Shown piece after piece: positions 11,533-35,857 of a DNA stretch of 35,857 bases. Numbering within the stretch: the stretch's first letter is position 1; every line of letters begins with the position of its first letter. The translations under genes and the position numbers were made by a program. The DNA comes from a virus. A model generated the notes under the pieces. That model was not told where the DNA came from, did not search any database, and worked only from the letters and a program-made list of their open reading frames with translations. The stretch lies in the UHGV virus genome UHGV-0063910, one strand, 5' to 3'.

Positions 11533-11540
11533 CTGTGCGT

Positions 11541-11947: not shown

Positions 11948-12201
11948 GCTGCCTGCTCTCCGGACTTAATATTGATGGTTGTCACTTCCTCCGCTTCAGC
12001 AATCTCCCGTTCGGTCAGAGTGGCAAAGTTTGCAGCCGCCGTTGTCATGAATGCGCTAATCAGTTCGGGATGTGCTTTCGCGTATCCTTCACCGGCGTTG
12101 CGATCTATTGCCTTAATCGCCACCCTTAGCCAGTGTTCAGCCATATCAAGGGCGCGGTAATGTGGCTTTATATGTTTGTTCAGTTTTCCTGATGTGTGCA
12201 T
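11944..12201 (-). CDS. Hypothetical protein (85 aa), between the ori and the ssb-like gene
   Basis: ORF whose stop overlaps the ssb-like start; weak RBS. Confidence 0.4.
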   Translation of the reverse strand: MHTSGKLNKHIKPHYRALDMAEHWLRVAIKAIDRNAGEGYAKAHPELISAFMTTAAANFATLTEREIAEAEEVTTINIKSGEQAA

Positions 12202-12246
12202 TTTTATTTTTACCCCCTCGTTTAAAAAGTTTTGAAATGTGGTGCA

Positions 12247-12475
12247 CCTCCTCTACCTCTCTACCTAATCATCTTTCAGGTCAGTAATGGCGCGGCTTTC
12301 AGATGGGTAGAGGGCTTTCGGGGCCCTCTACCCATCCTCTACCCGCCCCTCACAAATGACCTTAATCATGGTGGAGGAGGTAGAGGGCTTTTATTTGCCT
12401 TCTACCTGACCCTCTACCTGCTTATCATATTGAATAATATATATTTATTTTCTTTAGGTAGAGGAGGTAGAGGGC
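12247..12475. repeat. Iteron array (about 9 copies of GGTAGAGG/CCTCTACC, both orientations) flanking an AT-rich stretch: putative island origin of replication
   Basis: Iterons at about 12251-12265, 12306-12313, 12325-12344, 12379-12386, 12399-12420, 12457-12473; AT-rich core 12421-12456; immediately 3' of the primase-helicase gene. Confidence 0.75.
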
Positions 12476-12487
12476 TTTTGTCTAAAA

Positions 12488-14239: not shown

Positions 14240-14535
14240 TTTTTGCCCCTGAATGCGTTAATCATGCTTTTCATTTTCTGGATGTTTCCCCGCGCTTTTT
14301 CCCTGCTGATGGGGTTACTGCGGGGTGCGGCATATACCAGGGAAAAATCACGCCGGAACTGATAAACAGGCATCACGCAGTCATAGCTATACCCCTCACG
14401 GCGGTAAGTGATGCGCCGTTCTGCCACGCCTTTAATCGTTACCGTGCCGCCGTATTTATCGCGGTAAATATCGCCGTTCATAAATTCAGGCCGAGCGGGG
14501 CCGCTGGCAATAAAGCCAGAATTTTTCATTTCCAT
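14236..14535 (-). CDS. Hypothetical protein (99 aa), translationally coupled to primase
   Basis: Stop overlaps the primase ATG (ATGA). Confidence 0.5.
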   Translation of the reverse strand: MEMKNSGFIASGPARPEFMNGDIYRDKYGGTVTIKGVAERRITYRREGYSYDCVMPVYQFRRDFSLVYAAPRSNPISREKARGNIQKMKSMINAFRGKK

Positions 14536-14552
14536 ATTATTTATTCCTCGAC

Positions 14553-14774
14553 TTAACTCGACTTATTTGATAGCAGGGCACTATTTATTGCGTCATTGAG
14601 TTTTTCTGCTGCTTCATCAATAAGTGACAACAGGCCATAAGCAATATTTGCATCTTCATTGTCATTTATGCAATCAAGCCACATATTTAATATTGCTTTT
14701 GCTGAATTATTTAAAGTTAATGAACTTTCTGCACATGCTAACAATTTAAAAAAGACTTCCCGTTCTGTATTCAT
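14553..14774 (-). CDS. Hypothetical small protein (73 aa)
   Basis: ORF in the tightly packed minus-strand operon; AT-rich codons. Confidence 0.4.
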   Translation of the reverse strand: MNTEREVFFKLLACAESSLTLNNSAKAILNMWLDCINDNEDANIAYGLLSLIDEAAEKLNDAINSALLSNKSS

Positions 14775-14966
14775 TTAATCCCCCACCAGCTTACTTTCTT
14801 CCTCAATCAAAAAACTAGCGACACTTCCCGAAAGACGCGCCAGTAGGCTCGCCAGTGCGGATATATCAGCATCTGTAATTTTGTTCGGGTATACCTCAAG
14901 AAGGCGGCAAATAATTTCTGTCTGGTGCGCACGTTCAGCGGCTTCGTGTAATGTAATTTCCTGCAT
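14775..14966 (-). CDS. Hypothetical small protein (63 aa)
   Basis: Abuts neighbouring ORFs in the same operon. Confidence 0.4.
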   Translation of the reverse strand: MQEITLHEAAERAHQTEIICRLLEVYPNKITDADISALASLLARLSGSVASFLIEEESKLVGD

Positions 14967-15151
14967 TAATGCACCTCTTTTAATTCATACACTGCTGAAA
15001 TAATGACTTGTGATAAGCCATATTCTGATGATTCGCTTCTCACCGCAGCAATAGCCGTCTGAACATTAACAGCCTTCACGTTCTGAGCGATACCAATTGT
15101 GTGGCCTAGTGGGTTAACCGCACGAGCAAATACACGGAAGGTTTTAAGCAC
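14966..15151 (-). CDS. Hypothetical small protein (61 aa)
   Basis: Abuts neighbouring ORFs in the same operon. Confidence 0.4.
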   Translation of the reverse strand: MLKTFRVFARAVNPLGHTIGIAQNVKAVNVQTAIAAVRSESSEYGLSQVIISAVYELKEVH

Positions 15152-15508
15152 GGCATACCTCCTGACGAATACGGGCGGCGAATATCATCACGCAGCCAGT
15201 TGGGGATTGTTGGCGGGCTTCCTGTTCGCTGGTGGCCTCGATGTGTATTACGCGTGGTTGTGCGGTGCTCAGGGCGATAAAACGCCAGATGAAATTGTTT
15301 TCGCATTTCTGAATAAACAGCGTGTTTTCTTCACGCCCTTTCCAGAAAGCCGCAGTATAGCCCATCTCCTTAACCATCTTGCGGGCATCAACCAGCGTGT
15401 CAGCGGCAACATGTACCGTAGTTGCTCCATCTGCCATGCGGTCGTGGTGTAGTGCCAGAAAGGTGTATATAAATTTAGGGTGAGTTTGGGTATGCTGTGT
15501 TCCAGCCA
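15144..15508 (-). CDS. Hypothetical protein (121 aa), first gene of the island early operon
   Basis: ATG at 15506-15508 with GAGG RBS. The track ORF upstream of this ATG (to 16058) is antisense to the regulator gene and Ser/Arg-rich, so treated as spurious. Confidence 0.5.
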
Positions 15509-15595
15509 TAATCGTTACCTCGTTTAACGGTTTGGTTAGAAGCCCGGTTAGTGTTCGCGCACTGCCGGGTTTCGTCGTTTTTATGAATCGATCAT

Positions 15596-15699
15596 TGTGA
15601 GATACATAGCGACCATAATGTGAGATATACATTATATTGTGGTGATATACATTGCAAGTGTTTTTATATCTCACTTTTGTGTATAGTGATATACACATA
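15596..15699. promoter_or_regulatory. Divergent control region with 5 copies of a GTGA(G/T)ATA(T)ACA(T) operator-like repeat
   Basis: Copies at about 15596-15608, 15619-15632, 15640-15651, 15665-15674 (inverted), 15687-15699, between the minus-strand operon start and the plus-strand regulator. Confidence 0.55.
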
Positions 15700-15717
15700 A
15701 CAAATTGGTGATTAACT

Positions 15718-16020
15718 ATGTCTGTATACAAAAATGCAAAATCGCAAATGACAACGATCAGGGTTCCCCACGATGTTATGGAGGGCATGGAATCCGTAAA
15801 ACTGGACGGCGAAAGCAACGCCGGATTCATAGTAACCGCCATGCGCGGTGAGATCGCCCGCCGCCAGGCAGAAGGAAGCGGAGAAAATCCCCTCGTGTCT
15901 TCACTGGATGCCTTAGCTAAGGTCGAACAAATCGGCATCAAGGCAGCGGAGGAAATCGGGCAACTCGTAGCCGTCGCTCGTGAAGAACTCCAGCGGCGTA
16001 AAGCCAAAGAATCTGAATAA
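15718..16020 (+). CDS. Putative ribbon-helix-helix-like DNA-binding regulator (candidate island repressor)
   Basis: 100 aa; N-terminus QMTTIRVPHDVMEGMESVKLDGESNAGFIVTAMRGEIARRQ fits a strand-helix-helix layout; immediately downstream of the operator repeats. Confidence 0.4.
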   Translation: MSVYKNAKSQMTTIRVPHDVMEGMESVKLDGESNAGFIVTAMRGEIARRQAEGSGENPLVSSLDALAKVEQIGIKAAEEIGQLVAVAREELQRRKAKESE

Positions 16021-16370
16021 TTAGTATCAGCGCCGTGATGTGAGTAACTACGGCGCATTGCTATGTAAATACTGGCAATAAACAGAAAAGGTAGTTCTAC
16101 TCCGAATAATTTTATCTGACACTACTCCTGAACTAACATGCGCTTATCTTACAGGATATAAATATAAATCCATAAAATCACGATTAAATAAAGTCGCTCC
16201 AAACATAAACCACACCCAACGCTTAACAAGATAGCAACAAACAGGTAAATAACTTGCAGAAATATTTATCGCAAGGATTATCATTATTAATGACAAATCA
16301 CTTTACCAAGTCATTCCCCTCTCTTATCATAAAGAGAAAGTAATAAATAAGTTAAGGGAGTTAGAATGCT

Positions 16371-16907
16371 ATGAATCTAAAAAAAATAGCCACAAACACA
16401 AAAAACAAGATAACAGAAACATTTAATAAACTTATATTGGAGGCATCTAAAACCCCCACGCAAGATGAAATTAAAATACTTGAGAGAAGGAGTAAGAAGT
16501 TTAATTACTCCTTTTTCTCATACGCAGTCACAGGAGCTATAATAGTTTTTTGCTCTCAACCATTAATTAAATACGCAAACCCAATACTTATTTTATTGAG
16601 TGGTCTGTTACTGTCTATCATCATTATCATTCTCAGAATGATTTATATTTCACAAGCGAATGCATCATGGACAACCAAAAAACGCTCACATGTACTAGTT
16701 CATTTTCTTTCTGCATGTTTCATAGCATCAACATTGACGTTGCTATATCAGGCTTACGATAATAACATCACACACAAATTGTACTGTAAAAATATACAAC
16801 AACTTATTGAAAAAAGGATAGAAATAGAAAAAAACATCAGCATATTCAGTGGGATGCAATGCACCCCGGTATATGATTACTCTTTATTTGGATTTAATCT
16901 CTTATAA
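16371..16907 (+). CDS. Small membrane protein (about 3 TM helices), AT-rich cargo
   Basis: 178 aa; hydrophobic stretches FFSYAVTGAIIVFCSQPLI, ILILLSGLLLSIIIIILRMIYI, VLVHFLSACFIASTLTLLY; Lys/Asn/Ile-rich; preceded by GGGAG. Confidence 0.5.
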   Translation: MNLKKIATNTKNKITETFNKLILEASKTPTQDEIKILERRSKKFNYSFFSYAVTGAIIVFCSQPLIKYANPILILLSGLLLSIIIIILRMIYISQANASWTTKKRSHVLVHFLSACFIASTLTLLYQAYDNNITHKLYCKNIQQLIEKRIEIEKNISIFSGMQCTPVYDYSLFGFNLL

Positions 16908-16927
16908 AGAATGTTATTACTGATTTG

Positions 16928-16961
16928 AGTACAAATTCTCAAATCAGTAATTCATAATATT
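16928..16961. terminator. Bidirectional terminator hairpin (13-bp stem) between the membrane-protein gene and alpA
   Basis: ttactgatttgag ... ctcaaatcagtaa inverted repeat with an 8-nt loop and T-rich flanks on both sides. Confidence 0.55.
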
Positions 16962-16976
16962 TTATTCTGAGATAAT

Positions 16977-17213
16977 TTAAACTACCCACTCACCTCGAAT
17001 CCATGCCTGCACTTCTGAAAGACGATATGCAACAGCAGTGGAACCAATCTTGATCCGCTTAGGAAATTTTCCTTCCTTCTCCAGCTTCCAGCGTGTGCTG
17101 TTCGCAAGAGTGGTTAGCTCCCGACATTCTTTCTCACGGATCATTCGGTCAATGTTAGGAATGTACTCCAGACCCTTTTTATCAACAATTGCCATTTTTT
17201 TCATGTTAACCAA
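16977..17213 (-). CDS. alpA: AlpA-family HTH regulator / excisionase-like protein
   Basis: 78 aa; ELTTLANSTRWKLEKEGKFPKRIKIGSTAVAYRLSEVQAWI matches the AlpA pattern; directly downstream of int, overlapping it by 8 nt. Confidence 0.7.
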   Translation of the reverse strand: MVNMKKMAIVDKKGLEYIPNIDRMIREKECRELTTLANSTRWKLEKEGKFPKRIKIGSTAVAYRLSEVQAWIRGEWVV

Positions 17214-18441
17214 CCTTTTGTTTGAGGATTGTCACTTTTGAATCAGCACCTGCGATGCTATTGAGATATGTAGTCCAGAGTTCCAGAGCATCCAGTTTTT
17301 TAGCCATAAACTTACTCCGGTTGTAAACACCTGCCACGCCAGGTAGCGCATGGCCTAACAGTTGTTCTACTACATAAAATTCAACACCGAGATCACTTAG
17401 ATGAGTAGATAGCGTTCTTCTAAGGTCGTGTAGTGACCATTGTTTTTCATGGCCCAAACGTTTACCGATTTTCCCCCCAATCTTGCTTACGCTTTCTCTA
17501 ATTCGCAGACTTCCCAGCACATAACCAGTATGTTTTGTCTCTTCGTGAACATCCGTTACCCACTGTCGTAGAATTTCAGGTACTGGTCTGACGATTTCAA
17601 CACCAGTTTTTGAGTGATCTTTTGGTACAGTCCAAACCCAACTTTCGAGATCCCATTCGCTCCATTCTGATAATCGGGCTTCACTCATTCGACATCCAAA
17701 TACTGTACAAAGCACAAACATTTTTCGCGTGTATTCAGACATTAGTTTTAAATCAGGCTCGACAAAAATTGCCTTCCAGAGCTGGCCGAGTTCGGCTTCA
17801 TCCAGAACCCGATCCCGCTTACCTGCAATCTGCCCCACATCACTCATGCGCAAATCCTTTAAAGCATCACACGTCGCGTACTGGCGTACCCGACAAAAAC
17901 GAAGAGCTAATTTAGTGTCAGAAAAAACATACGCCGCCATAACTGGTGCATTACGTTTAATTCGGTCAAAACAGTCCAGCCATTCATATAGGTGAGTGTC
18001 ATTTACGGGCAAATGACCGATATAGGGAAAGATATGCTTTCGAAATCTGCCAAGCGTTACAGCATGAGTTTTACGACGCACCTTACAGTAATTTTCATAC
18101 CAGTAATTTAGTGCATCCTCCACTGTGACCGGCTTTAAGCGTTCTTCAGCCTGAATCTTAATCTGGATACGCGGATCACGTTTGTCAGCCAACCAACCAC
18201 GGCACTCGTCGCGCTTTTCCCTTGCCTGTTTGAGTGACATATCAGGATATTTACCCAACGTTAGCCAGACCGGAGCAGCCCGGCCACCTGCTAACCTGTA
18301 GAAGAAAACAAAGCTTACAGCCCCTTTAGTACTCACACGAATAGAAAGCCCCTTTCCATCAGCAATGGTGATCTGCTTTTCTCTGGGTTTCCCCAGATAT
18401 CCTTTAAGCGCTTTGTCGCTCAGTTTGTTCTCGCCAGCCAT
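17206..18441 (-). CDS. int: Tyrosine integrase (P4-type)
   Basis: C-terminal catalytic region with HDLRRT...LGH...Y residues; sits next to the right repeat. Start placed at ATG 18439-18441 (MAGENKLSDK...); the track ORF extends to 18492. Confidence 0.85.
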   Translation of the reverse strand: MAGENKLSDKALKGYLGKPREKQITIADGKGLSIRVSTKGAVSFVFFYRLAGGRAAPVWLTLGKYPDMSLKQAREKRDECRGWLADKRDPRIQIKIQAEERLKPVTVEDALNYWYENYCKVRRKTHAVTLGRFRKHIFPYIGHLPVNDTHLYEWLDCFDRIKRNAPVMAAYVFSDTKLALRFCRVRQYATCDALKDLRMSDVGQIAGKRDRVLDEAELGQLWKAIFVEPDLKLMSEYTRKMFVLCTVFGCRMSEARLSEWSEWDLESWVWTVPKDHSKTGVEIVRPVPEILRQWVTDVHEETKHTGYVLGSLRIRESVSKIGGKIGKRLGHEKQWSLHDLRRTLSTHLSDLGVEFYVVEQLLGHALPGVAGVYNRSKFMAKKLDALELWTTYLNSIAGADSKVTILKQKVG

Positions 18442-18605
18442 TTTTAGCCCCAAAAAGCAATACAAGCTGCAATACAGAGATGATTGCAACACACAGATAA
18501 CGAGGAAAATTCAGTGAAAGCACCAGATAAACTTATTCTTTATTATCAAAAGATTAAGTGTAAAAACCAGCAACTACACGAAAGCCTCAGAAAGCCATGC
18601 TAAGT

Positions 18606-18615
18606 GCTTGGGTTT
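18606..18615. repeat. Right copy of 10-bp direct repeat TGCTTGGGTT (putative attR core)
   Basis: Identical to 7480..7489; lies inside the codons KPKH of the E 5' fragment. Confidence 0.8.
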
Positions 18616-24827: not shown

Positions 24828-25037
24828 AGAGAAAGGAAACGACAGAGGCTAAAAAGCCCGTTTTCAGCACCTGTCGTTTCCTTTCTTTTCAGGGGGTGTT
24901 TTAAATAAAAACATTAGGTTACGGCGAAGAAGAACGGAAACGCCTTAAACCGGAAAATTTTCATAAATAGCGAAAACCCGCGAGGTCGCCGCCCCGTAAC
25001 GGTCTGGATCACCGGAAAGGACCCGCCAACGACTTTC
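24828..25037. other. Prophage cos site (cosB R elements, cosN with 12-nt cohesive end AGGTCGCCGCCC at 24983..24994, cosQ side)
   Basis: Reverse complement contains GGGCGGCGACCTCGCGGGTTTTCGCTATTTATGAAAATTTTCCGGTTTAAGGCGTTTCCGTTCTTCTTCGCCGTAAC, matching the lambda left end/cos as recalled. Confidence 0.9.
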
Positions 25038-25217
25038 GCGTGCAGGCATTAAAAATTTTGCAGTTCCATGCCTAGTTGAAACCTCGATTTCTATAACATC
25101 CAATTTTGTAAATTTAGATATAGCTCAACTTTTCCCAATGTTTTCAAGTGTATAAAAACAATTGGCGTTACGCCATAACACTATACTTAGGATAAGTAAA
25201 GATTTTAAGGAGTTTTA

Positions 25218-26285
25218 ATGAGTCAACATCAATATTATCCACAGCTGAAATGGAAGCCTGCTGAATATGAATCTCTGATGCTTTTAGATCAAACTACGCT
25301 CTCTGGTTTTACTCCGATCATTACCATTCCAGACATAGACTGGGATTATGAAAACGAATGCTACAAGAAGAGTTTGAGTTCTTACTTATCTGACTTCGGT
25401 ATTAACCTTGCGGCATCCTGGAAAGCCAATCGTCCTGTTTTGCTGGATGTTAAATATTTAGATAAACATGGTTCGAGCCGCCATCATCCTCTAGATATGT
25501 GTATCCAAGATGCTAGAGTAAATGGTAAGGAAATTATCCCTGTTGTTTCTCCCGCATATTCAACAAACTATATACATGCTGTTCAACGCAACTTAATCAA
25601 TGGGCTCGCTATATCTATCACCCCCCAGACATGGCACCAATTCACAAGTCTGGTTAACCACTTAAATATTCATCCTAGTTTAATTGATGTAATCATTGAT
25701 TTTGGAGATATTCAAAACGCAACTGATAGTTTAAAACAACAAGCATTAAGCATGGTCAACACATTATCAGGCCAAGCTCCGTGGAGAAACTTGATTTTAT
25801 CTTCAACCGCATACCCGGCATCACAGGCAGGGATACCGCAACATCAAGTTCATCATATTCCGCGCCATGAATACGATCTTTGGATGTACGTAGTACAGAA
25901 TTTTAGCAATGGAAGAACGCCAAGTTTTAGTGATTATCCCACCGCTAGCTCTACCATTACGAGCGTAGACCCACGCTTCATGTCTCAGTATGTCTCAGTG
26001 AGATATTCGAACGATACCTCATGGATCTTTGTAAAAGGTACCGCAGTTAAAGGAAATGGATGGGGCCAAACTAAAAACTTATGTACTACCCTTGTTAGTT
26101 CGCCAGAGTATCAAGTCTTTGGCTCCAAATTTAGTTGGGGGGATGATTACATTTACCAAAGATCATTAGGCGCTAACAAATCTGGCGGCTCTAAAGAATG
26201 GCGTAAAGTTGCACATACGCACCATATTACGTTAGTCGTGAGACAGCTTTATTGGTTGGCGCAGACTCAGCCTGCCAAGCCTTAA
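25218..26285 (+). CDS. Hypothetical protein (355 aa), AT-rich cargo gene next to cos
   Basis: ATG with TAAGGAG RBS. Opposite strand to the phage late genes, in the position lambda uses for bor-type accessory genes. No family recognised with confidence. Confidence 0.6.
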   Translation: MSQHQYYPQLKWKPAEYESLMLLDQTTLSGFTPIITIPDIDWDYENECYKKSLSSYLSDFGINLAASWKANRPVLLDVKYLDKHGSSRHHPLDMCIQDARVNGKEIIPVVSPAYSTNYIHAVQRNLINGLAISITPQTWHQFTSLVNHLNIHPSLIDVIIDFGDIQNATDSLKQQALSMVNTLSGQAPWRNLILSSTAYPASQAGIPQHQVHHIPRHEYDLWMYVVQNFSNGRTPSFSDYPTASSTITSVDPRFMSQYVSVRYSNDTSWIFVKGTAVKGNGWGQTKNLCTTLVSSPEYQVFGSKFSWGDDYIYQRSLGANKSGGSKEWRKVAHTHHITLVVRQLYWLAQTQPAKP

Positions 26286-26847
26286 CTTTCCAGCCTACGC
26301 GTTTCTTTAAGGCTGTTCTGACTTCAAGCCTGAGATTCGCTATTGGAATATTTTCCGCAATAATATTCCATAACTCAAATCGGGGCTTGCTTTTTATTCC
26401 TTTGGAATAGCCCCATCGTTCAAGTACGTCGATACATTCATCTTTCCAAAGCAATTGAGCGAGCATCAATGTGTCATGGTTTCGATTAAGCTTTTCTCCA
26501 CGCATGTGCTTTATAAGAATGGCGCCTTTTGGCCCAACAGAAACCGTTTTAACGCCCCACCAACCTGGGATTAACTTTAATGCTCCCTCAAGGTGTTTCT
26601 CAGCTACGACAAGAGTAACCTTGTCCATTACAGAAGAATAATGCTTGATTTGAAGAGGCAAACGCTCCAAAGAGTCATATTCACTTTTGAGCTCGTACCC
26701 GTGTATAACACCATTTATTACAGCAATGTCTGCTCTACTGGCGCCAAGGGATATGGAAAATTCATCGACCACAAGGCAGTCTGGATCTAAATGCGATTCT
26801 TTCAAAAGCTTATGATGCACCGCGAACCTAACATCTTGATCTTTCAT
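26227..26847 (-). CDS. Hypothetical protein (206 aa) with possible PD-(D/E)xK nuclease-like motif, AT-rich cargo gene
   Basis: ATG with AAGGAG RBS; segment VVDEFSISLGASRADIAVINGVIHGYELK has the D...(E)xK spacing of restriction-endonuclease-like folds. Its 3' end overlaps the 355-aa gene convergently by 59 bp. Confidence 0.55.
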   Translation of the reverse strand: MKDQDVRFAVHHKLLKESHLDPDCLVVDEFSISLGASRADIAVINGVIHGYELKSEYDSLERLPLQIKHYSSVMDKVTLVVAEKHLEGALKLIPGWWGVKTVSVGPKGAILIKHMRGEKLNRNHDTLMLAQLLWKDECIDVLERWGYSKGIKSKPRFELWNIIAENIPIANLRLEVRTALKKRVGWKVKAWQAESAPTNKAVSRLT

Positions 26848-27263
26848 GACTTCTCCTTACTCCCTCCGTTATTGAATTATAGCGCACTGCATTTTACTGC
26901 ATTTGAGAGATTTGACCACTTCAATCACAAAATGCTTATCTGCAGCAACAAGATTCATAGCCATACGACTATGGTGATTACCTTTTGTCTGGAAAACTGA
27001 CCATTCCACGAAGATCAGATAGGTCTATAGAATCTTGGTTTGTCATAGCGTTCGCCTTACTTTGAGATGAACCTTTGCTGCATAGGAGATCAGCCCGTCA
27101 AGGCTCACCAGCACTAACTGACTACTCAAAGGCTCATTCCAAAGGGTTTGGTTCGACGTGGTTGAGTGCGCTCCGGTGCGCGGTGAAATACCTGTACAAA
27201 AATGCCCCGCATCTGCGAGGCATTTTCCTGAAAGTCACGTATAAAATTTCAGTGAAATTAAAA

Positions 27264-27701
27264 TTATTTTAAGCACTGCGTCCTGATGTATTCCTGCAGG
27301 TAGTTAACCTGCGCGGTTATCCTGTCGATTCCACTTCGGAGACGGTAATAATTGAGTTCAGCATCTGCTGTAAGTCTTGGGCTTTCTCCATCGCCCATGC
27401 TGCTGGCTCCGGTCGTTGACTTTGCACAGGTGGCGGAGACTTGCAGGCGCTTACGACCAACAGAAACATCAGCACGGAGACTTTCGATAGTCGCGTTAGC
27501 ATCAGCAAGCTCCTTTGTGTATCTGGCGTCGAGTTCTGCTACATCACGTTGACGCTTCTGCATGTCAGCGATTGTGGATGTGGCTTTATCGCGCTGCTCT
27601 TTGTAGGCGATGGCGTTATCACGGTAATGATTAACAGCCCATGACAGGCAGACGATGATGCAGATAACCAGAGCGGAGATAATCGCGGTTACTCTGCTCA
27701 T
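27264..27701 (-). CDS. Rz: Spanin inner-membrane subunit Rz
   Basis: 145-aa [40 protein letters not shown]... matches lambda Rz. Confidence 0.9.
27317..27508 (-). CDS. Rz1: Spanin outer-membrane lipoprotein Rz1 (embedded in +1 frame within Rz)
   Basis: Embedded ORF with lipobox LVVSAC followed by a Pro-rich segment (SPPPVQ). True start may be an internal Met. Confidence 0.6.
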
Positions 27702-28174
27702 ACCTCAATCTCTCTGACCGTTCCGCCAGCTTCTTTGAATTTTGCAATCAGGCTGTCAGCCTTATGCTCGAACTGACCATAACCAGCCCCCGGCAGTGAA
27801 GCCCAGATATTGCTGCAACGGTCGATAGCCTGACGAATATCACCGCGATCAATCATCGGTAAAGCGCCACGCTCCTTAATCTGCTGCAGTGCAACAGCGT
27901 CCTGGCTTTTTGGAGAGAAGTCTTTCAGGCCAAGCTGCTTACGATAGGAATCCCACCAACGGGAAAGAAGCTGGTAGCGCCCGGCTGCTGTTGATTTGAG
28001 TTTTGGGTTTAGCGTGACAAGTTTGCGAGGGTGATCGGAGTAATCAGTAAATAGCTCTCCGCCTACAATGACGTCATAACCATGATTTCTGGTTTTCTGC
28101 CGTCCGTTATCCGTTCCTTCTGACCATGCCACCATATCGAGGAAAGCTTTACGCTGAGGATTAAGATTTTGCAT
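27698..28174 (-). CDS. R: Endolysin R (lytic transglycosylase)
   Basis: 158-aa ORF ...[47 protein letters not shown]... matches lambda gpR. Confidence 0.9.
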
Positions 28175-28478
28175 TTTTCACCCCTGTCAGTCGTTCCCAG
28201 AAGTACGTCAGTGCAACCGAACCCATCGCACCACTAATCCCCGCTGTCGCGAGAATCATGTAAATACTGAATCCACTTTCGATGCTGATCAGGCCACCAA
28301 TAACACCGGTGAATCCTGATACCACTATCTGAGCCAGAGCATTTATCCAACTCCACGTTGCTTTACTCTGCTTCACATCTATCAGGTAGCGGACTAGACC
28401 GCCCCAACCTGCGATGATCAGCAAAACGAGCCAGAACGCTCCGGCAAGGCTCTCTTTTTCGTGCATATGAATAGCCAA
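28161..28478 (-). CDS. S: Holin (non-lambda-S sequence type)
   Basis: 105-aa hydrophobic ORF with 2-3 TM segments and a charged C-terminus, immediately upstream of and overlapping R; sequence differs from lambda S. Confidence 0.7.
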   Translation of the reverse strand: MAIHMHEKESLAGAFWLVLLIIAGWGGLVRYLIDVKQSKATWSWINALAQIVVSGFTGVIGGLISIESGFSIYMILATAGISGAMGSVALTYFWERLTGVKNAKS

Positions 28479-28581
28479 TGTTTCGCCGCCGACAAAAGGC
28501 CGGGACGTTAAATGTCAGAAATCAGGCTCACGGGGTAATTTAACGACAAAGCACGGAGTTGATGCTCCCCGCAAGCCTGGA

Positions 28582-28606
28582 ATAAAAAAGCCAGCATGTA
28601 GCTGGC
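28582..28606 (-). terminator. tR'-like intrinsic terminator of the short late leader (6S-like) transcript
   Basis: On the minus strand gccagc-tacat-gctggc followed by tttttt, between the Q stop and the holin start. Confidence 0.55.
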
Positions 28607-28787
28607 AACAGAGGGTTAAGCAATATCAACTCAACAGCTGAAGACACCCTGGCTGGGGTACGTTGGAAGGATACTCACCGCCCAGAAACAGAAAAGCCCA
28701 AGGCTTTAAACCTCGAGCTTGAATTTGGATTACTGCCAGTGCGTACAATATTGGCAAAATATCAGATTTATATGAAATATATGCTTT

Positions 28788-29477
28788 TTAATCCAGTTTT
28801 GCAATATTTTGCTGTGAAAATGTCGCCTTTTGTTTTGAACGTGTTCTCGTTAGAAGCAATAAAGCTTCGCTATCAAGCTGTAGAAAAATGTGCTTCATTG
28901 CAACCCAGCGTTCAGTGAATGTCTCAGACCAGTTTTTTGATGTCACTCCCACCAGTGACGCCAGTTCCTGGTATTCATAAGCCTCACGCCCTGCCAGTTC
29001 GCTCTTCACATCCTGTGCCGCCAGCCAGATCAACTTCTTCAGGCGTTCCAGTGTCTTACCTGCAATTTTTCTGGTACCCAACAGAGTCTTAAACTCGCTC
29101 CATGCCCACTGCGTTATGGCAACCTGATGCTCCCAGCGAATATTTTCACTGTAACTCCACAGCAACCATGCTTTCTGATGCTCATCGAGAGACAGAACAG
29201 CGCGGCGCCATGAAGAGGTTGAAAACTCGACCGGACTGATCAGGGCGACAGATGAACCTTTTGCGTACGACTGTTTACCGGAAATCGGCGGATTATCCAG
29301 CATAATAATCTTGCCAGTTACCTCATCCAGAATGCGTCGCTTCTTTCGTTTGTATGTACCAGTATCAAATTGTGCATGCTCCAGCCAGGCTTCAAGCTGG
29401 CCTTTCGTTGCTCCGCTCAAGTCAGCGGTAGCCACCATGAGTTGCTCGCGGACATACTGTAAATATTGGGTATTCAT
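28788..29477 (-). CDS. Late-gene antiterminator Q-like protein (non-lambda type)
   Basis: 229-aa ORF in the canonical position between the nin region and the lysis genes; not similar to lambda Q. Assignment is mainly positional. Confidence 0.55.
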   Translation of the reverse strand: MNTQYLQYVREQLMVATADLSGATKGQLEAWLEHAQFDTGTYKRKKRRILDEVTGKIIMLDNPPISGKQSYAKGSSVALISPVEFSTSSWRRAVLSLDEHQKAWLLWSYSENIRWEHQVAITQWAWSEFKTLLGTRKIAGKTLERLKKLIWLAAQDVKSELAGREAYEYQELASLVGVTSKNWSETFTERWVAMKHIFLQLDSEALLLLTRTRSKQKATFSQQNIAKLD

Positions 29478-29614
29478 GCGGCAGCTCCTTTCAGTGTTTT
29501 GGCGTAATTCCTCAGTATTCGGTAATCGGTCAAAACAGAACCAGGAAAACGATATAAGCGCAGGCGCACCCAGCGGCGGCGAAGACGCTCTGCCATATAA
29601 GACTCAAACATCAT
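29474..29614 (-). CDS. ylcG: Small protein YlcG (46 aa)
   Basis: [46 protein letters not shown], between rusA and Q; both ends overlap neighbours (TGATG / ATGA). Matches the DLP12 ylcG product as recalled. Confidence 0.7.
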
Positions 29615-29973
29615 TCATTCCCCAGTTCAGTGATGGTCAGTTCCAGCTTCCCACCTTTGGTAACAGGCATCTTCACAACGCGGTAATCAACGACCAGCTC
29701 ATCATCCAGCCAGAAACCTGCTTTAGTGAGTGCGTCAAAAGCGGCTTTTTGCAGATTATCCAGGTCACGGCGACGGCGATCCGGCATGTGGCACTCAATG
29801 CGGATTTTCACAGGCATAGCCAGACCGATATCCAGCATTGAGCCTTTAATGATTCGGGCGACGTTATCACGGTATGCCTGCCCTTCTGCGCTGATGTGCG
29901 TGCGCCCGCGATTATGGCGGTAATAGCGATTATTGCTCGGAGGCCAGGGTAATGTGATGCTGTAGGTATTCAC
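29611..29973 (-). CDS. rusA: Holliday junction resolvase RusA
   Basis: 120-aa [45 protein letters not shown]... near-identical to E. coli RusA as recalled. Confidence 0.95.
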
Positions 29974-30260
29974 GCCTTAATAACCCCCTCTTTCAGCCAG
30001 ATAACCTGTGTTCTCGCCATACCTTCCAGCGCGCATTCTTTTGCATATGCAGCATCGACAAAATGTGTGCGGCGGTCGATTTCGTCGTGGCAGGCAGAAC
30101 ATGCAATGGTGGCAATCAGGTCTGGCGGTTTGGTACCGGTGCCGCACAATCCAGCCAGCCGGATATGTGCCAGTACTGACGTTTCAGAATTGCCATTACA
30201 TACGCCAGGGATTCTTACCTGGCATTCCCGACCACGCGCTGCTTTTCTCAAATCAGCCAT
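29970..30260 (-). CDS. ybcO: YbcO-like protein (DUF1364 family, putative nuclease)
   Basis: [65 protein letters not shown]... matches DLP12 YbcO; start at ATG 30258-30260 overlapping the ninE stop. Confidence 0.85.
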
Positions 30261-30423
30261 GATTCCTCCTTGCTGCCAGTCGCAACCATTTTTTATCAAC
30301 CAGGCTAGCGGTATATCCGAGCAGTGTTGGTATTTCGGATGGCTTCAGCTCAGGCTTACGCTTACGACGATTTGATACTCTGTAGATGTGTCCGTTCATG
30401 ACACGAATAAGCGGTGTAGCCAT
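30253..30423 (-). CDS. ninE: NinE-like protein (56 aa), not in the ORF track
   Basis: Manual translation gives [56 protein letters not shown]; overlaps the ybcN stop (TAATG) and the ybcO start. Confidence 0.7.
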   Translation of the reverse strand: MATPLIRVMNGHIYRVSNRRKRKPELKPSEIPTLLGYTASLVDKKWLRLAARRNHG

Positions 30424-30878
30424 TACGCCTCCTGCTTGTCGCGGAGCAGCTGGAACTCGCAGCTCTGCGGAATAGTCAGGTGGCAGCCAATATTCACCGC
30501 CCAGGCTTCAACCTTACACAGGAAGACATACATCTCTCCGGTATCAAGATCGGAGGTATGGCGTAACGACTGGATAGTGGTGATATCACCGGTTACGACA
30601 TCAACCAGGTCTTTGGTTTCATAACCGAGATATGTGTGTTTGAGAGCATCTTTTACCCATGCTGCAGTAGCGAACGATTTCCCCCTGCTTATGAGGTATT
30701 CACTGATTTCGCTGTACCACATGTGGCTAAGTGCATTCTGGGAAAGACTGCGTCTCTCGCGCCACGGTTTAAGCACCATGCGAAAGCATTTGCCGTCCTC
30801 CAGATAAGGCTGGATCTGCTGACCGATAGCGGTGAAGTTACCGCGATGCAGTTTGATGCCATCTTGTGGTAGGTTCAC
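30423..30878 (-). CDS. ybcN: YbcN-like protein
   Basis: 151-aa [63 protein letters not shown]... matches DLP12 YbcN as recalled. Confidence 0.8.
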
Positions 30879-31325
30879 GCTTCACCTCCACAGAGGTCAG
30901 ACGCTGGATGCAAAAAAACGCAGGTGCATTTCTGCATCTGTGAAGGGAGAAGAGAGTTTGGATTGTGTGTGCGCATAAACGTCCCCGTTTAGCGCAGAAG
31001 TCACCGAAGTTGTTCAGGCTCCGGTGATACAATTATGGCGAATTGATTATTCATAATCAAACAAGATAAGGTCTCAAACTTCATGCAAGCCAAGATTTAT
31101 TTCTGACAGAATCATACAAAGAAGCTATTGGTCAGAATCTACTCGGACTGTAAAACATACGCATAACCTTAAGCTCTCACTTTAAGCATTGTTGAAATAA
31201 TAGCCGTCAAGTACAACCTTAACCACGACTGGGATATTTCCCTAGCTACCACGAGTTGTACGGCTATTAAACTGCCGTTAAATTCAGTAAGAGAATTTCA
31301 TCCGATAAGTCAAGGCATGTAAAAC

Positions 31326-32369
31326 ATGAAAATTAACAAGATATTATCATCTGCAACACTATTGTATGGTATGTCAATGGCCATGTCGGTCGGGAGTTGT
31401 GCAACACCTGTCCAGACTAATCTTCCTGGTTACACCCCGGGTGCAGATATCATTAGTGTTTCACCGACCAGAAACCAGGTCGATCTCATTGGTGATGTTG
31501 TTTATTCCCAGATAAAAGGAACTCGTTCTGTCAGACAGCTTCACATGTCAGTTCTTGTCCCACGAACAAATGATTTAAAACCAGCCATTATTTATTATCC
31601 CGGCGGCGGATTCATGTCTTCTGAACATGACAAATTTATTGAAATGAGAATGGCTCTGGCTGAAGCTGGTTTTGTTGTGGCCGCTGTAGAATACAGAACA
31701 ATTCCTGATACATTTCCAGCACCAGTTGAGGATGGGAAAGCTGCAATACGTTACTTGAGAGAACATGCCAGCGATTATGGGATTGATCCTCAAAGAATCG
31801 GAGTTCTGGGTGACTCTGCCGGTGGATGGCTTGCCCAGATGATGGGAACTACAAATGGTGACAAAACCTTTAATAAAGGTGACTTTCTTCAGCAATCAGC
31901 AGATGTTCAGGCAGTTGCCACACTTTATGGGATTTCTGACTTGTTGAATATTGGCGAGGGGTTCCCTGAATCAGTGCAGGAGGTTCATCGATCTCCTGCC
32001 GTAACCGAAGCCTTAATGATCAATGGCCCTGCATTCAGAAGTTTTGCGGGAGCCCCCATAACAGCGTCAAAAGAAAAAGCGCTAAACGCCAGTCCAATCG
32101 GACATATGAAAGGAGTAAAACCCCCATTTCTTATTATGCATGGTAGCAAAGACACTCTGGTTTCACCTGAGCAAAGCGCCAAACTATTCAGGATGTTGAA
32201 GAAGAACGGCGATAACGCTGAGTACGTTCTGGTAGAAGGGGCTGAGCATGGCGATAATACATGGTATCAGCCAATTATTATAAACAGAGTTGTTGAGTGG
32301 TTTACTAAAAACCTGGGAACCCCCATAAAAACCGCTACCCAACAACAAAAAACAAACGCTGACCTGTAA
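31326..32369 (+). CDS. Secreted/lipoprotein alpha/beta-hydrolase esterase (HSL-type), cargo gene
   Basis: 347 aa; N-terminal signal peptide with lipobox-like MSVGSC; PGGGF oxyanion-hole-type motif and GDSAGG nucleophile elbow; hairpin gcccgca-ctta-tgcgggc right after the stop. Confidence 0.75.
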   Translation: MKINKILSSATLLYGMSMAMSVGSCATPVQTNLPGYTPGADIISVSPTRNQVDLIGDVVYSQIKGTRSVRQLHMSVLVPRTNDLKPAIIYYPGGGFMSSEHDKFIEMRMALAEAGFVVAAVEYRTIPDTFPAPVEDGKAAIRYLREHASDYGIDPQRIGVLGDSAGGWLAQMMGTTNGDKTFNKGDFLQQSADVQAVATLYGISDLLNIGEGFPESVQEVHRSPAVTEALMINGPAFRSFAGAPITASKEKALNASPIGHMKGVKPPFLIMHGSKDTLVSPEQSAKLFRMLKKNGDNAEYVLVEGAEHGDNTWYQPIIINRVVEWFTKNLGTPIKTATQQQKTNADL

Positions 32370-32718
32370 AAAGCAGCCCGCACTTATGCGGGCTAACCTA
32401 TTTCACTCGATTCAAAAGAAATTATTTTTAATGGGGGCGTGACCAGCCTCTCGGTGCTCAGATACTTAATGAAGTGGAGTGGCATTCAGGCAAGAGGTTA
32501 ACATCACCTGTTCGCCATAACCAAGCACGTGCACAAAGTTTGTTATCAGTGAATTGTTTTGTGATTGGGTATTGTTGAGCTACTAGAGCAAGAATGCCAA
32601 CATCCAGTGGCAGTGCCTATAGTAAAACTATAGCTCAGGGCGCTTCGTTCAAGATAGTTAATATCATATTAGTTACTTTACTTTCATACCATAGCACGGT
32701 TGAAAAAGTGATTATTAC

Positions 32719-34245
32719 TCAAAAATAAATCTCACCATCAACCATATATTTAAGAGTACTTATCGCCTGCTGGGCGGATATTACTTTCATTAAAGGATAG
32801 TGTTTAAAAACAATGCCATTCATAAAATAGATATCACAGGTTTTATTATCTGTATTAATTATAATTTTTTCGAATATTTTATAGGCAAGTGTTCGACATA
32901 GCTCTCGCCCATTTTTACTGGTTAAATCAATAGCATGAAAATCACCAAGTGAACTCACCCCTTTACTCTTCAAAGTTTTTAATGATACCGAAGCCCTTCG
33001 TAATTCCTTATCTAATAGTCTTATTTTCTCTGCTATAGCGGTAACTTCAGGCGCGACAGACAATGCAACGATTAAATTATTAATTTTCATCTGAAGCTCA
33101 ATAATTTTTAACTCTAAAGTTTCATTAGCATCTTTCTTGTTTTCAACTGGTTGAATTTTGCTACAATTAAAAAGCAATTCATTAATGATATTATAATCAA
33201 CCAAATCTCTTTTTATTGATGGTCTGTCACATCGATGTAATCTTCTCATCGGACAAACATAATAGCCATGCAAACTTCCAGATACCGCATGAACAATCAT
33301 GGTATTACCACAAGCCTCACACTTCATAACTGTTCGAAGTAGATTTATTAGCATAGGATTCTTGCTACTATTGCTAATACCAAAAGGTGCCAACCGAATT
33401 TCCTGTACAGCGTAAAACAAATCATCTGATATGACTCTGGGATAATAGCCAGCGATTTCACTTATCCCTTTCCCTCTTGCACGATATGAAGGTACGCATA
33501 TACCTATCAGAGCTTTATTCGCTAATAATTTTTCAATTACAGAAGGTCCCCATGCACTTTCTTTTCCTGAGAAATTCTTTACAGCATGATCATTTAAATA
33601 CTTGGCTATTGCATTCAATGAGCGCCTTTCCATCCTGAGTTTAAAAATTAGCTCAATAGTTTTCACCCTGTCGGGGTCTGGAACAAAAGCCGTTCTTTTG
33701 TCATCCAATGAGAGCCATCTCGGACAAGAAGCCGTCATAATCGTGCCTGACTCCAGTGCATCCTGCCGTTTTTTCTTCCATGATAATTTAACCCGACTTG
33801 ACTTTATCTCGCTTTCTTCATTTGCCCTTTGTGCTATAAGTATGGCTTTTATTAATGAATATGGCTCATTCAATGAGTCAATATTATAGACTGTATTATC
33901 GCAAAGAGTTATAACATCAATACCGTGATTCAAAATCAATTTCAGACGCTCAATCGCTTCACCGACTTTTTCTCTTGAAAGTCTGTCCAGACTTTCAACT
34001 AACAATGTAGTCCCTGGCAATATATAACCATGTTCTATAGCATCTAAAAATTCCGAAAAAGCTCCTGATTGTGCATGCTTTCCATTGAATGCGCTTAACC
34101 CCAAATCTTCATACGTTACGGTATCAAGGTAATAATCACTATTTACCTTTAGCCATTCAGTAATAAGCCTTCTCTGGCGGTTTAATGAATCACCAGACAT
34201 CTGACCTGGTGATGAAAATCGCATATATGCTATGGCTTTTTTCAT
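32719..34245 (-). CDS. ybcK: Large serine recombinase (YbcK-like)
   Basis: 508 aa; N-terminal resolvase-type catalytic motif AYMRFSSPGQ (catalytic Ser), large C-terminal domain with Cys-rich zinc-ribbon-like segment and coiled coil; AT-rich; position matches DLP12 ybcK next to emrE. Confidence 0.8.
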   Translation of the reverse strand: MKKAIAYMRFSSPGQMSGDSLNRQRRLITEWLKVNSDYYLDTVTYEDLGLSAFNGKHAQSGAFSEFLDAIEHGYILPGTTLLVESLDRLSREKVGEAIERLKLILNHGIDVITLCDNTVYNIDSLNEPYSLIKAILIAQRANEESEIKSSRVKLSWKKKRQDALESGTIMTASCPRWLSLDDKRTAFVPDPDRVKTIELIFKLRMERRSLNAIAKYLNDHAVKNFSGKESAWGPSVIEKLLANKALIGICVPSYRARGKGISEIAGYYPRVISDDLFYAVQEIRLAPFGISNSSKNPMLINLLRTVMKCEACGNTMIVHAVSGSLHGYYVCPMRRLHRCDRPSIKRDLVDYNIINELLFNCSKIQPVENKKDANETLELKIIELQMKINNLIVALSVAPEVTAIAEKIRLLDKELRRASVSLKTLKSKGVSSLGDFHAIDLTSKNGRELCRTLAYKIFEKIIINTDNKTCDIYFMNGIVFKHYPLMKVISAQQAISTLKYMVDGEIYF

Positions 34246-34500
34246 GGTGACATCTGCTAAAGTATGCTTTTATAAACCTTAGTGGTGAGATATGATTTTT
34301 GTTTAATTTTTATTTAAAAAGACAATTAAGGTCACATTATCTTGAATATACAACAATAATCGTATTGCAATTTTCTTACACCATAATCTTGAAAGCACAA
34401 AAGAATGAATAAAAACTAAAGACATTAACAAAAAACATAAAACGAGGCCCATATAAATATACGAGCCTCCATATTTTAGTCGTTTAAAAACAAATTATTT

Positions 34501-34833
34501 TTAATGTGGTGTGCTTCGTGACAATAAATTAATAACCAACACACCGGCACAAATCAACATCATGCCTATAATGGCTGGCAGGTCCAACCGTTGGCCGAAA
34601 AATCCCCATGATAGTAAGCTAATCAGGACAATACCGACTCCTGACCAGATAGCATAAGCAATCCCTGTAGGAATATAAGCCAGCGTCTGAGCTAATAACC
34701 AGAATGATGCACAATAACAAATAATTGTACCAACAGATGGCCATAACCGTGTAAAACCTTCTGAAAACTTCATTAAGGTTGTACCAATGACCTCTGCAAG
34801 TATTGCACCACCAAGATAAATATAAGGATTCAT
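34501..34833 (-). CDS. emrE: Small multidrug resistance efflux transporter EmrE
   Basis: From the internal ATG (34831-34833, AGGAAAG RBS) the 110-aa product MNPYIYLGGAILAEVIGTTLMKFSEGFTRLWPSVGTIICYCASFWLLAQTLAYIPTGIAYAIWSGVGIVLISLLSWGFFGQRLDLPAIIGMMLICAGVL.INLLSRSTPH is essentially E. coli EmrE. Confidence 0.95.
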   Translation of the reverse strand: MNPYIYLGGAILAEVIGTTLMKFSEGFTRLWPSVGTIICYCASFWLLAQTLAYIPTGIAYAIWSGVGIVLISLLSWGFFGQRLDLPAIIGMMLICAGVLVINLLSRSTPH

Positions 34834-34900
34834 AGTATATTCTTTCCTGTTCAAACTGGAGAGAATTGTACTACAGTTTGAACTCAACTCACCTGTTTCA

Positions 34901-35203
34901 TCATTGTGTACCCATTGATGTTCTTTTATATACCCTCAATACCCGTTTCATCGCGGCACTCTGGCGACACTCCTTAAAAATCAAATTCGTGCTCACCTTT
35001 CCTTCCCATTCTTCTCTGGTAGCGAACCGATAATACACCGTTCGCCAGACCTTACCATCAACGACCAGGATTCCTGCCCGCGCCATTTTAGCCGCAGCCT
35101 GATTTATGCTGGTTACGGTTGCGCCTGTTACCGCGGCAACGTCCTGCGCACAGAAGTTCTTATGAGTCCCCAGGTAATGAATAATTGCCTCTTTGCCCGT
35201 CAT
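34901..35203 (-). CDS. ren: Ren protein (Rex exclusion)
   Basis: 100-aa ORF MTGKEAIIHYLGTH..FCA.DVAA.TGATVTSINQAAAKMARAG.LV..GKVWRTVYYRFATREE... matches lambda Ren. Confidence 0.85.
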   Translation of the reverse strand: MTGKEAIIHYLGTHKNFCAQDVAAVTGATVTSINQAAAKMARAGILVVDGKVWRTVYYRFATREEWEGKVSTNLIFKECRQSAAMKRVLRVYKRTSMGTQ

Positions 35204-35857
35204 ACACTTGCTCCTTTCAGCCCAAACTTAGCTTTGATTTCTGCGATCTTCGCCAGAGCCTGTGCACGATTTAGAGGTCTACCGCCCATGACAGGAAGTT
35301 GTTTTACTGGTTCAGGTATCGCCTCACCACGGTTAATTCGCGCGGTCATACAGGACAGTTCATCGGCAGCCTTGCGCCGTAATTCCGCGTCAGTCAACGC
35401 ATTGGCCCGCATGTTCTGATACAGGTTGGTAACCAGCCAGTAGTGCGCGTTTGATTTCCACGGATAAGACTCTGCATCCGGATACAGACCACGCTTCCGG
35501 CAATACTCGTAAACCATATCAACCAGCTCGCTGACGTTTGGCAGCCCGGCGGTAACGGATGCTTCTTCCCGGCACCATGCAACAAACTGCCCGGGTGATG
35601 GCAGAAATGGTCTATTCTGCCGACGGGCAACACGCATTCCGGCGCTCACCTGCTCCATCGTGGTGATCCCGTTTTCCCGGAAAGCCAGAACCCACTGGCG
35701 GCGGATTTCGTTCAGTTCGTTCTGGTCACGATTAGCCAGGCTCGCCGGGAAAGTTGCCAGTAACTGGCTGAATACACCGTTGATTATCTGCGCTACCTGC
35801 TGTACCTGCGGCTTTTCGTCGTACTGTTCCGGCATGTTGTTGGCGATCCGACGCATC
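35200..35857 (-). CDS. P: Replication protein P (DnaB helicase loader), 3' portion; 5' end lies beyond the window
   Basis: 218 aa in window: MRRIANNMPEQYDEKPQVQQVAQIINGVFSQLLATFPASLANRDQNE.NEIRRQWVLAFRENGITTMEQV... near-identical to lambda gpP residues ~16-233. Confidence 0.9.
   Translation of the reverse strand, partial: MRRIANNMPEQYDEKPQVQQVAQIINGVFSQLLATFPASLANRDQNELNEIRRQWVLAFRENGITTMEQVSAGMRVARRQNRPFLPSPGQFVAWCREEASVTAGLPNVSELVDMVYEYCRKRGLYPDAESYPWKSNAHYWLVTNLYQNMRANALTDAELRRKAADELSCMTARINRGEAIPEPVKQLPVMGGRPLNRAQALAKIAEIKAKFGLKGASV

Follow-up and report, generated by a model that had tools for sequence, protein, structure and literature searches.

The viral genome UHGV-0063910, a stretch of 35,857 nucleotides (nt) whose full length is called the window below, is a lambda-like Escherichia coli prophage whose open reading frames (ORFs) run from early to late on the minus strand. 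It raises the question of why an EmrE efflux pump, a large serine recombinase (YbcK) and an alpha/beta-hydrolase esterase should sit together in its nin region, and whether the recombinase moves or inverts any part of this segment. We consider it probable that the segment is a composite block of moron (cargo) genes, that it occupies the variable ren to ylcH-ybcN slot in a prophage of the Perceval/DLP12 type, that it originated by a crossover, and that ybcK is not mobile here today. The original prediction had placed these non-phage genes between ren and the ybcN block, and ORFs, Pfam and NCBIfam confirmed all of them (Table 1). The gene content of the span that it gave, 30879 to 34500, was right, but the end was short, as emrE (34501 to 34833) starts one base past it.

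Cargo between ren and ylcH

In the relatives, several alternative arrays lie between ren (or P) and ylcH. Homology to every alternative array, including that of a chromosomal island at the fliE locus, begins at the stop codon of ren, a gene that gave no match in a Pfam scan of the window proteins. At the right border, the five arrays aligned there share one junction before ylcH, and all five keep a promoter-like element (match at 31060 to 31032, ahead of ylcH) and a hairpin with a stem of about 10 bp. This border sequence may be a promoter, a tR2-like terminator or simply a boundary. Beyond it, ylcH is annotated in every inspected related locus that extends to ybcN, the gene that opens the conserved ybcN-ninE-ybcO-rusA block, with ylcG and Q coming after rusA.

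The contents of the slot, on the other hand, vary between phages. A query joining ren to ylcH-ybcN found 111 genomes in which the two lie about 0.8 to 0.9 kb apart, and among the related loci (numbered here with the prefix L) the slot contains two small hypothetical genes (L003), a deleted or truncated ybcK (L004) or a gene for a TIR-domain protein (L005). O157 strain 472 carries emrE-ylcJ-ybcK with nothing intact behind; in L008 and L009 the same three genes are followed by a gene for a protein with a P22AR C-terminal domain and another small gene. The SaT040 type, represented by about 500 genomes, has gene P, a 1,302-residue inverse autotransporter (an intimin/invasin-like adhesin) and the same esterase as the window. 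In K-12, the DLP12 prophage has the order emrE-ylcJ-ybcK, so the resemblance of emrE and recombinase to DLP12 described in the original prediction is borne out by sequence comparison, as is its suggestion that the esterase replaces other DLP12 genes, which are ybcL-ybcM. The ren-ylcH interval behaves as a lambdoid cargo hot spot. Because the junctions are shared and the alternative cargo is unrelated, we treat it as a moron slot, and the view of the segment as non-phage cargo holds both for the alternative contents at the same junctions and for a GC content lower than that of the phage backbone. Other traits of morons are present too. The GC content of the block is 26 to 44% (ybcK 35.9%, spacer above ybcK 26%, esterase 44%, emrE 40%) compared with 49% for the window (49.2%), there are two terminator-like hairpins, and the genes are transcribed in a lysogen, strain LF82. 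Rfam (positions 30300 to 35400, E ≤ 1) gave no match, and a PADLOC scan of the esterase, YbcK, EmrE, YlcJ and Ren found no match to a defence system.

Two observations on neighbouring arrays are added here. The TIR-domain gene of L005 (2141 to 2953, E. coli EH10-18-47) indicates that the slot can carry candidate anti-phage defence genes. The SaT040 prophage (L034/L006) is located at icd, and ren, emrE and ybcK are absent from its slot.

The block is widespread as a unit. Of 5,426 complete E. coli genomes, 172 contain the 4.6 kb from 30700 to 35300 at full length and as a single collinear match; SCU-301 matches best (99.9%), and LF82 and NRG857C reach 98.6%. The cargo (31040 to 34900) is 98.8% identical over its whole length to phages Perceval, 4A7, Lambda_4C10, 1W, 3W and PhiR47_2, and D2 covers 96% of it. 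Perceval is spontaneously induced, and EmrE has been named among its morons (PMC9928086). According to the RNA sequencing tables of LF82, all three genes have higher expression in lysogeny broth than their neighbours O, P and NinB and are flagged as significantly up in the comparison as tabulated (recombinase, log2 fold change of 3.65, q of 5e-19), although their values fall below the 5-fold moron cut-off of that paper in this medium (PMC9928086). The LF82 copy, from which these transcription data come, is the one 98.6% identical to the window.

Flanks of ybcK and origin of the array

The flanks of ybcK (255 and 349 bp) are AT-rich, as had been described, but they are neither featureless nor, as the original prediction had it, non-coding throughout. 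The upstream flank contains the emrE terminator, a terminator-like hairpin at 34469 to 34444, and an intact ylcJ ORF whose start codon lies within the 3' arm of the terminator stem. YlcJ shares 42 of its 49 residues with K-12 YlcJ, is identical to the copy in L008 and is conserved together with ybcK; in strain SCU-301 the gene carries a one-base frameshift. The downstream flank contains, in order, about 78 bp of conserved sequence, a P22AR stub of about 170 bp, a second emrE end with its 3' untranslated region (UTR), and a terminator. The 78 bp are conserved in the window, O157 strain 472 and L008, with K-12 alignable but more diverged. The BLAST matches break off at window positions 32680 (K-12), 32653 (O157 strain 472) and 32443 (L008), and an integron-like capture site downstream of ybcK was rejected because these breakpoints do not fall on one nucleotide. 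The stub matches genes annotated as "P22AR C-terminal domain-containing protein" at 78 to 93% DNA identity. It has lost its start codon, contains a frameshift and is cut at about codon 57, with two tblastn frames spanning residues 1 to 58, and an intact version of about 100 residues follows ybcK in L008 and L009. The idea that the tail of ybcK in K-12 is a diverged P22AR gene was rejected on comparison.

A search for repeats around 32400 to 34500, as suggested in the original prediction, gave a direct repeat but no inverted pair beside ybcK. The direct repeat, D1, is 52 nt long, with 77% identity between copies that lie 2,073 bp apart. In copy 2, the final emrE codons are followed by the 3' UTR of this gene and half of its terminator. 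When read in frame, copy 1 gives SRPH-stop (the last 4 to 5 codons), where emrE has SRSTPH-stop (blastn 32/38, E of 3e-08), and continues into a similar UTR and a second terminator (32395 to 32374). A tblastn search with EmrE against the 3' flank of ybcK gave no match, and the remnant of 4 to 5 codons was seen only by DNA comparison and reading of the frame. Both copies contain a perfect 15-mer that occurs just twice in the 35.8-kb window. In the arrays of K-12, O157 strain 472, L007 and L008 no second copy of this core or flanking repeat was found (L007, K-12 and L008 having neither). D1 can most simply be read as two diverged emrE 3' ends that were brought into one array by unequal crossover.

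The two array types that such an event would require both exist. The first, emrE-ylcJ-ybcK-P22AR, is that of L008 and L009. The second, emrE-esterase, is found in L019 (Escherichia sp.). There, between bioA-bioB and ybhC, the lambda attachment region is occupied by a prophage remnant in which a full emrE is directly convergent on the esterase without ybcK. The emrE UTR of L019 is of the copy-1 type, here joined to the full gene. The region upstream of the esterase is also common to L019 (from window position 31084) and SaT040 (from the start of the query, 31040); promoter prediction called none on the plus strand of 31061 to 31325. In the history that we propose, two collinear phages, each with cargo led by emrE, would have been joined by one unequal, non-homologous crossover, one parent carrying emrE-ylcJ-ybcK-P22AR and a hypothetical gene and the other emrE-esterase. 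The joint would lie at about window 32442/32443, so that the left part of the ybcK array would be followed by the right part of the esterase array, leaving behind the P22AR stub and a second emrE 3' end. The 52-nt repeat around ybcK would then be there because the crossover left two emrE 3' ends. This would be one more case of lambdoid phages reshuffling their cargo at fixed slots by unequal crossover.

YbcK as a recombinase without a visible local substrate

YbcK matches the Pfam families Resolvase (PF00239, 8e-19), Recombinase (PF07508, 2e-14) and Zn_ribbon_recom (PF13408, 8e-08), and a coiled-coil insert could be read from the sequence alone. Its best PHROG is 95, "integrase" (3e-120), with PHROG 125 (resolvase/invertase) also matched. 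The sole NCBIfam match was XisF, at 46 bits against a cut-off of 375, and phmmer against all PDB chains found nothing at E ≤ 0.001. Residues R9, S11, Q15, D87, R88 and R91 as well as C309, C312, C331 and C339 are invariant in an alignment of 23 sequences of the family. With its three domains, nucleophilic serine, conserved arginines and four-cysteine zinc ribbon, YbcK resembles the large serine integrases of phages (phiC31, Bxb1, A118/LI, TP901-1 and SprA of SPbeta), and it is predicted to be a complete, catalytically competent recombinase of the phage-integrase type. It differs from them in that its gene belongs to the nin region, in phages equipped with a tyrosine integrase. In Perceval, SaT040 and O157 strain 472, tyrosine Int/Xis genes are found at icd or elsewhere and ybcK stands inside a normal gene order, and the candidate role of YbcK as the integrase of the prophage was rejected on these grounds.

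A different possibility is that ybcK is a functionless, decaying relic, a dead integrase that came with a phage fragment captured in the distant past. Its location inside a prophage with no recognisable att partner, the cryptic state of K-12 DLP12 and truncated copies such as that of L004 would all fit. However, the six ybcK alleles compared are intact at 508 codons, with a ratio of nonsynonymous to synonymous substitution rates (dN/dS) of 0.06 to 0.16 (about 0.07 overall) over dS values of up to 0.18, and YbcK keeps all the catalytic and cysteine residues that are invariant in the family. At least 80% of the ybcK-ylcJ query is retained in 1,400 of the 1,426 genomes with any ybcK match, and the gene is transcribed and present on viable phages. 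YbcK is therefore under purifying selection with its catalytic and zinc-binding residues intact, not the dead recombinase that would have counted against the original prediction, and this signal contradicts a relic, which we regard as very unlikely.

The claim that found no support was that the recombinase marks an independently mobile cassette or an invertible segment. All 172 genomes with the full segment align as one collinear piece in one orientation, that is, with none of the structural variation across strains that such a role would predict, and the esterase-ybcK junction was counted exactly 172 times, in the same genomes. Searches for inverted repeats, both local and over the whole window, found only short, weak, chance-like pairs near ybcK and none that brackets the esterase, and the same repeat searches found no cognate, dyad-symmetric att pair beside ybcK. 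These data bear directly on the idea that YbcK is a DNA invertase that works a phase-variation switch here, for instance by flipping the esterase or the promoter of the esterase. The N-terminal domain does match resolvase/invertase families (Pfam, PHROG 125), the esterase is opposite in orientation to the operon, and serine recombinases of other K-12 cryptic prophages have been reported to invert DNA (PMC12529663). But YbcK, with 508 residues, belongs to the large serine recombinases and not to the small invertases, no arm of an inverted repeat lies next to ybcK and no such pair surrounds the esterase, a second orientation never appears, and the orientation of the esterase relative to ylcH is the same in the window/SCU-301, SaT040 and Perceval arrays. 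The genome survey largely refutes an invertase, and we hold this explanation to be extremely unlikely.

An autonomous cassette is not borne out by the survey either. The ybcK-ylcJ-emrE junction is present in 1,402 of the 5,426 genomes, compared with 1,400 to 1,426 that have ybcK, and in none of the 5,426 is ybcK found at the fliE-locus emrE or ren-emrE-ybcL found without ybcK. The tails beyond ybcK are unrelated in K-12, O157 strain 472 and the window, so that the element has no fixed right end; ybcK is always next to emrE, and neither emrE locus shows polymorphism in occupancy, the look of filled and empty sites appearing only between paralogous arrays. Overall, we found nothing to indicate that YbcK excises, transposes or inverts the segment in E. 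coli today.

Several points nevertheless weigh against a history by crossover alone. The strong purifying selection implies an activity of YbcK that this history does not name, and the parental arrays found are not the literal parents, L019 coming from another Escherichia lineage at about 94% identity. Moreover, ybcK and ylcJ form a clean indel of about 2.07 to 2.08 kb with respect to two arrays without ybcK. Compared with the fliE-locus island, K-12 has an extra block of 2,083 bp that starts 7 to 8 bp after the emrE stop and consists of ylcJ, ybcK and 309 bp, between flanks 90 to 92% identical; compared with L019, the window has an extra block of 2,073 bp, and at the repeat the alignments on either side have 38 bp in common. 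The window ybcK is bracketed by the perfect 15-bp direct repeat, one copy at either end and no others in 35.8 kb. Some large serine integrases share att cores of about 15 bp. The same kind of bracketing, by a diverged repeat of the end of a neighbouring gene, is seen around a 59% homologue in L028. One could propose that ylcJ-ybcK, together with about 300 bp of its 3' flank, is or used to be a small element that integrates itself, placed by YbcK just past the emrE stop at a core such as CATTAAAAATAATTT, with D1 as attL and attR. An intact recombinase under purifying selection, belonging to a family found in varied contexts (prophage ends, nin region, a plasmid-like locus), would suit such an element.

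Against this stand the complete lack, in 5,426 genomes, of an occupied fliE-locus emrE or an empty emrE-ybcL phage slot, the constant linkage of ybcK to emrE, and the right end, at which K-12, O157 strain 472, L008 and the window diverge at different points into unrelated tails. K-12, L007 and L008 have no second core or flanking repeat, the repeat of the window is recognisable as the 3' end of a second emrE, complete with a terminator, and the repeat search revealed no att-like sites of dyad symmetry at either end. Even from a circular intermediate, the illegitimate P22AR/emrE joint would still have to form, so that this model takes one step more. A self-integrating element therefore seems unlikely to us, and it is equally doubtful that an active YbcK once integrated ylcJ-ybcK site specifically at the emrE 3' end through a core near CATTAAAAATAATTT. 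If it did, recombinases of the YbcK family would travel in phage nin regions as small, self-inserting passengers and would bring along a copy of the end of their target gene, and site-specific insertion would explain the diverged direct repeats of both the window and L028.

As to where YbcK came from, the E. coli protein is isolated in sequence space, all other sequences being at most 61% identical. Homologues with 51 to 59% identity in Atlantibacter, Yersinia and Erwinia are located at the right prophage end, after a tail-fibre assembly gene, in loci that cover one end of each prophage; in Atlantibacter, 540 bp separate the homologue from the 3' end of a transfer-messenger RNA gene. This terminal position suggests an integrase ancestry for YbcK. 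Further relatives were found in a nin region, a plasmid-like locus and a prophage remnant. The one in L028 (7650 to 10850 of metagenome contig SRR27200988_1169) is the 59% homologue, in the nin region of another lambdoid phage, where it adjoins KGG and DinI genes downstream of a SIR2_2 protein. The block there is bracketed by a direct repeat of 181 to 200 bp with 86% identity that corresponds to the 5' end of the neighbouring DUF1367 gene, in parallel with the emrE-end repeat of the window.

Literature searches on ybcK and on DLP12 with serine recombinase yielded studies on expression, tolerance and Rho termination, and no recombination function for YbcK is given in the papers searched or opened. 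Our preferred reading, a composite cargo block formed by crossover, leaves as a puzzle a complete large serine recombinase that is strongly selected in phages with a tyrosine integrase of their own. Most likely, YbcK was captured into the nin-region cargo and kept for its usefulness to phage or host. Our best guess is an orphaned integrase-type recombinase under selection that acts on a site outside this segment. Its target site, if found, could make YbcK part of a new pair of integrase and att site or point to a function of the phage that has gone unrecognised.

Companion genes, the rest of the prophage and known relatives

EmrE (110 residues) scored 240.6 bits against NF042984 (cut-off 226), and E14 is present in the translation, which points to a proton-coupled small multidrug resistance (SMR) pump for drugs and cations, with a terminator of its own. 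The esterase matched BD-FAE (3e-44, 151 bits against a cut-off of 26.8) and Abhydrolase_3 (9e-23, 81.5 against 25) and reached no NCBIfam equivalog cut-off; the closest solved chain is 6nkf, the metagenomic lipase Lip_vut4 (E of 1e-36). It has a lipobox, MKINKILSSATLLYGMSMAMSVGSC, ending at C25 (PROSITE-style pattern), the motifs PGGG at 92 to 95 (GGG 93 to 95) and GDSAG at 162 to 166 with S164, and a catalytic triad probably completed by D276 and H308, given the motif alignment with 6nkf. It is predicted to be a lipid-anchored serine hydrolase exported to the cell envelope and convergently transcribed. Few relatives appeared in a scan of one genome per species, in Erwinia, Pectobacterium and Enterobacter (64 to 71%) and in Selenomonas (about 45%). 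Compared with the hormone-sensitive-lipase/BD-FAE esterases (Lip_vut4, 6nkf; the acetyl-xylan esterases 6xyc and 6tkx), it has the same fold, GDSAG elbow and GGG oxyanion motif, and its HGxxD and histidine motifs align with 6nkf, but it is phage borne and has a lipoprotein signal peptide. The block is of modest practical relevance, in that viable phages of E. coli from the gut and from extraintestinal sites, including the Crohn's-associated LF82, would carry an efflux pump together with an exported esterase.

Table 1. Features of the cargo slot, its borders and the capsid-gene insertion (window coordinates)
Feature	Position	Strand	Basis and remarks
Replication gene P	35200-35856		ORF list; rightmost of the listed ORFs
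ren	34901-35203	-	ORF list; near-identical copies named "protein ren" in RefSeq; left slot border
emrE	34501-34833	-	Pfam Multi_Drug_Res 2e-35; NCBIfam NF042984
emrE 3' end, 3' UTR and intrinsic terminator	34444-34509	-	D1 copy 2, 34458-34509; 15-bp identical core, 34492-34506
ylcJ	34303-34452	-	Intact, hydrophobic small ORF of 49 residues; annotated as ylcJ in K-12
ybcK, large serine recombinase, 508 residues	32719-34245	-	Resolvase, Recombinase and Zn_ribbon_recom (Pfam)
3' flank of ybcK	32641-32718	-	Multi-array alignment, BLAST breakpoints; array-specific sequence starts at its end
Pseudogene stub of P22AR-C-terminal-domain gene	32439-32610	-	78-93% DNA matches; tblastn
Second-emrE remnant, 3' UTR and terminator	32374-32442	-	D1 copy 1, 32385-32436; 15-bp core, 32419-32433
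Lipoprotein alpha/beta-hydrolase (esterase/lipase), 347 residues	31326-32369	+	Convergent to phage operon; Pfam BD-FAE, Abhydrolase_3
AT-rich (~37% GC) stretch upstream of esterase	31061-31325		Belongs to esterase cassette; composition, array comparison
Right slot border: promoter-like TTGATT-17-CATAAT, then hairpin ATCACCGGAG...CTTCGGTGAC	30985-31060	-	Five-array alignment
ylcH	30875-30976	-	Conserved small ORF, 33 residues; translation compared with K-12 YlcH
ybcN (NinB-like)	30423-30878	-	NCBIfam PRK09741, 276 bits; weak Pfam NinB match; RefSeq annotation
Putative satellite: P4-type tyrosine integrase	17206-18492
Putative satellite: AlpA-like excisionases (two)	16977-17213; 9531-9875
Putative satellite: D5-type primase	12488-14239
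Putative satellite: head-decoration protein	9885-10226
Putative satellite: major head protein	10236-11276		42% identical to that of Perceval
Putative satellite: Abi_C protein	7839-8600

Elsewhere in the window, an insertion of 11,115 bp (7490 to 18604) lies inside the lambda-E-type major capsid gene, which is uninterrupted at that place in Perceval, and is bracketed by a perfect 10-bp direct repeat, TGCTTGGGTT, at 7480 to 7489 and 18605 to 18614. It looks like a capsid-encoding phage satellite, similar to phage-inducible chromosomal islands (PICI) or P4, in the capsid gene of a prophage that is likely of the helper type, and it seems more unusual than the cargo block itself. The region from 24995 to 29483, between cos and Q, has no match in Perceval and holds a gene for a 355-residue "Beta_protein" (PF14350) on the opposite strand (25218 to 26285, plus). 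No nmpC/ompC-like porin gene was found among the window ORFs between Q and the holin gene, unlike in K-12 and Perceval.

The block is already annotated and partly studied in public records. The closest known system is phage Perceval (OV696612; prophage 2 of the adherent-invasive E. coli strain LF82), which has the same order of P, ren, emrE, recombinase, convergent hydrolase, ybcN/Orf, ninE, ybcO, rusA and Q and matches window 29484 to 35857 as one collinear piece at 97.7%. Its record annotates a "Multidrug transporter EmrE," a "Large serine recombinase (DLP12 YbcK homolog)" and an "alpha/beta hydrolase," with a tyrosine integrase and an excisionase at the usual place. The window prophage differs from it in the unmatched 24995 to 29483 (Q to lysis genes and cos) and in the putative 11.1-kb satellite in the major capsid gene. 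DLP12 of K-12 (renD-emrE-ylcJ-ybcK-ybcL-ybcM-ylcH-ybcN) has the same slot, left part and ylcH border, with 96.5% identity that starts at ren and extends about 40 bp beyond ybcK, and a match that resumes from about 31036 leftwards. In between lie the P22AR stub, the emrE remnant and the esterase of the window, whose place in K-12 is taken by an unrelated tail (about 270 bp) and ybcL-ybcM. The K-12 ren is split by IS3. The third system is the emrE-ybcL-ybcM chromosomal island beside fliE. At least about 2,250 complete E. coli genomes have it, among them O104:H4 2011C-3493 (with others, L016 to L018) and also LF82; many strains, such as LF82, have both the phage-type and the fliE-locus emrE. The paralogous emrE of the island is about 91% identical over the aligned emrE region and the homology of the island to the slot runs from the ren stop codon, but it is located outside any prophage and has neither the esterase nor ylcJ-ybcK, with 4 bp in place of the 2,083 bp.

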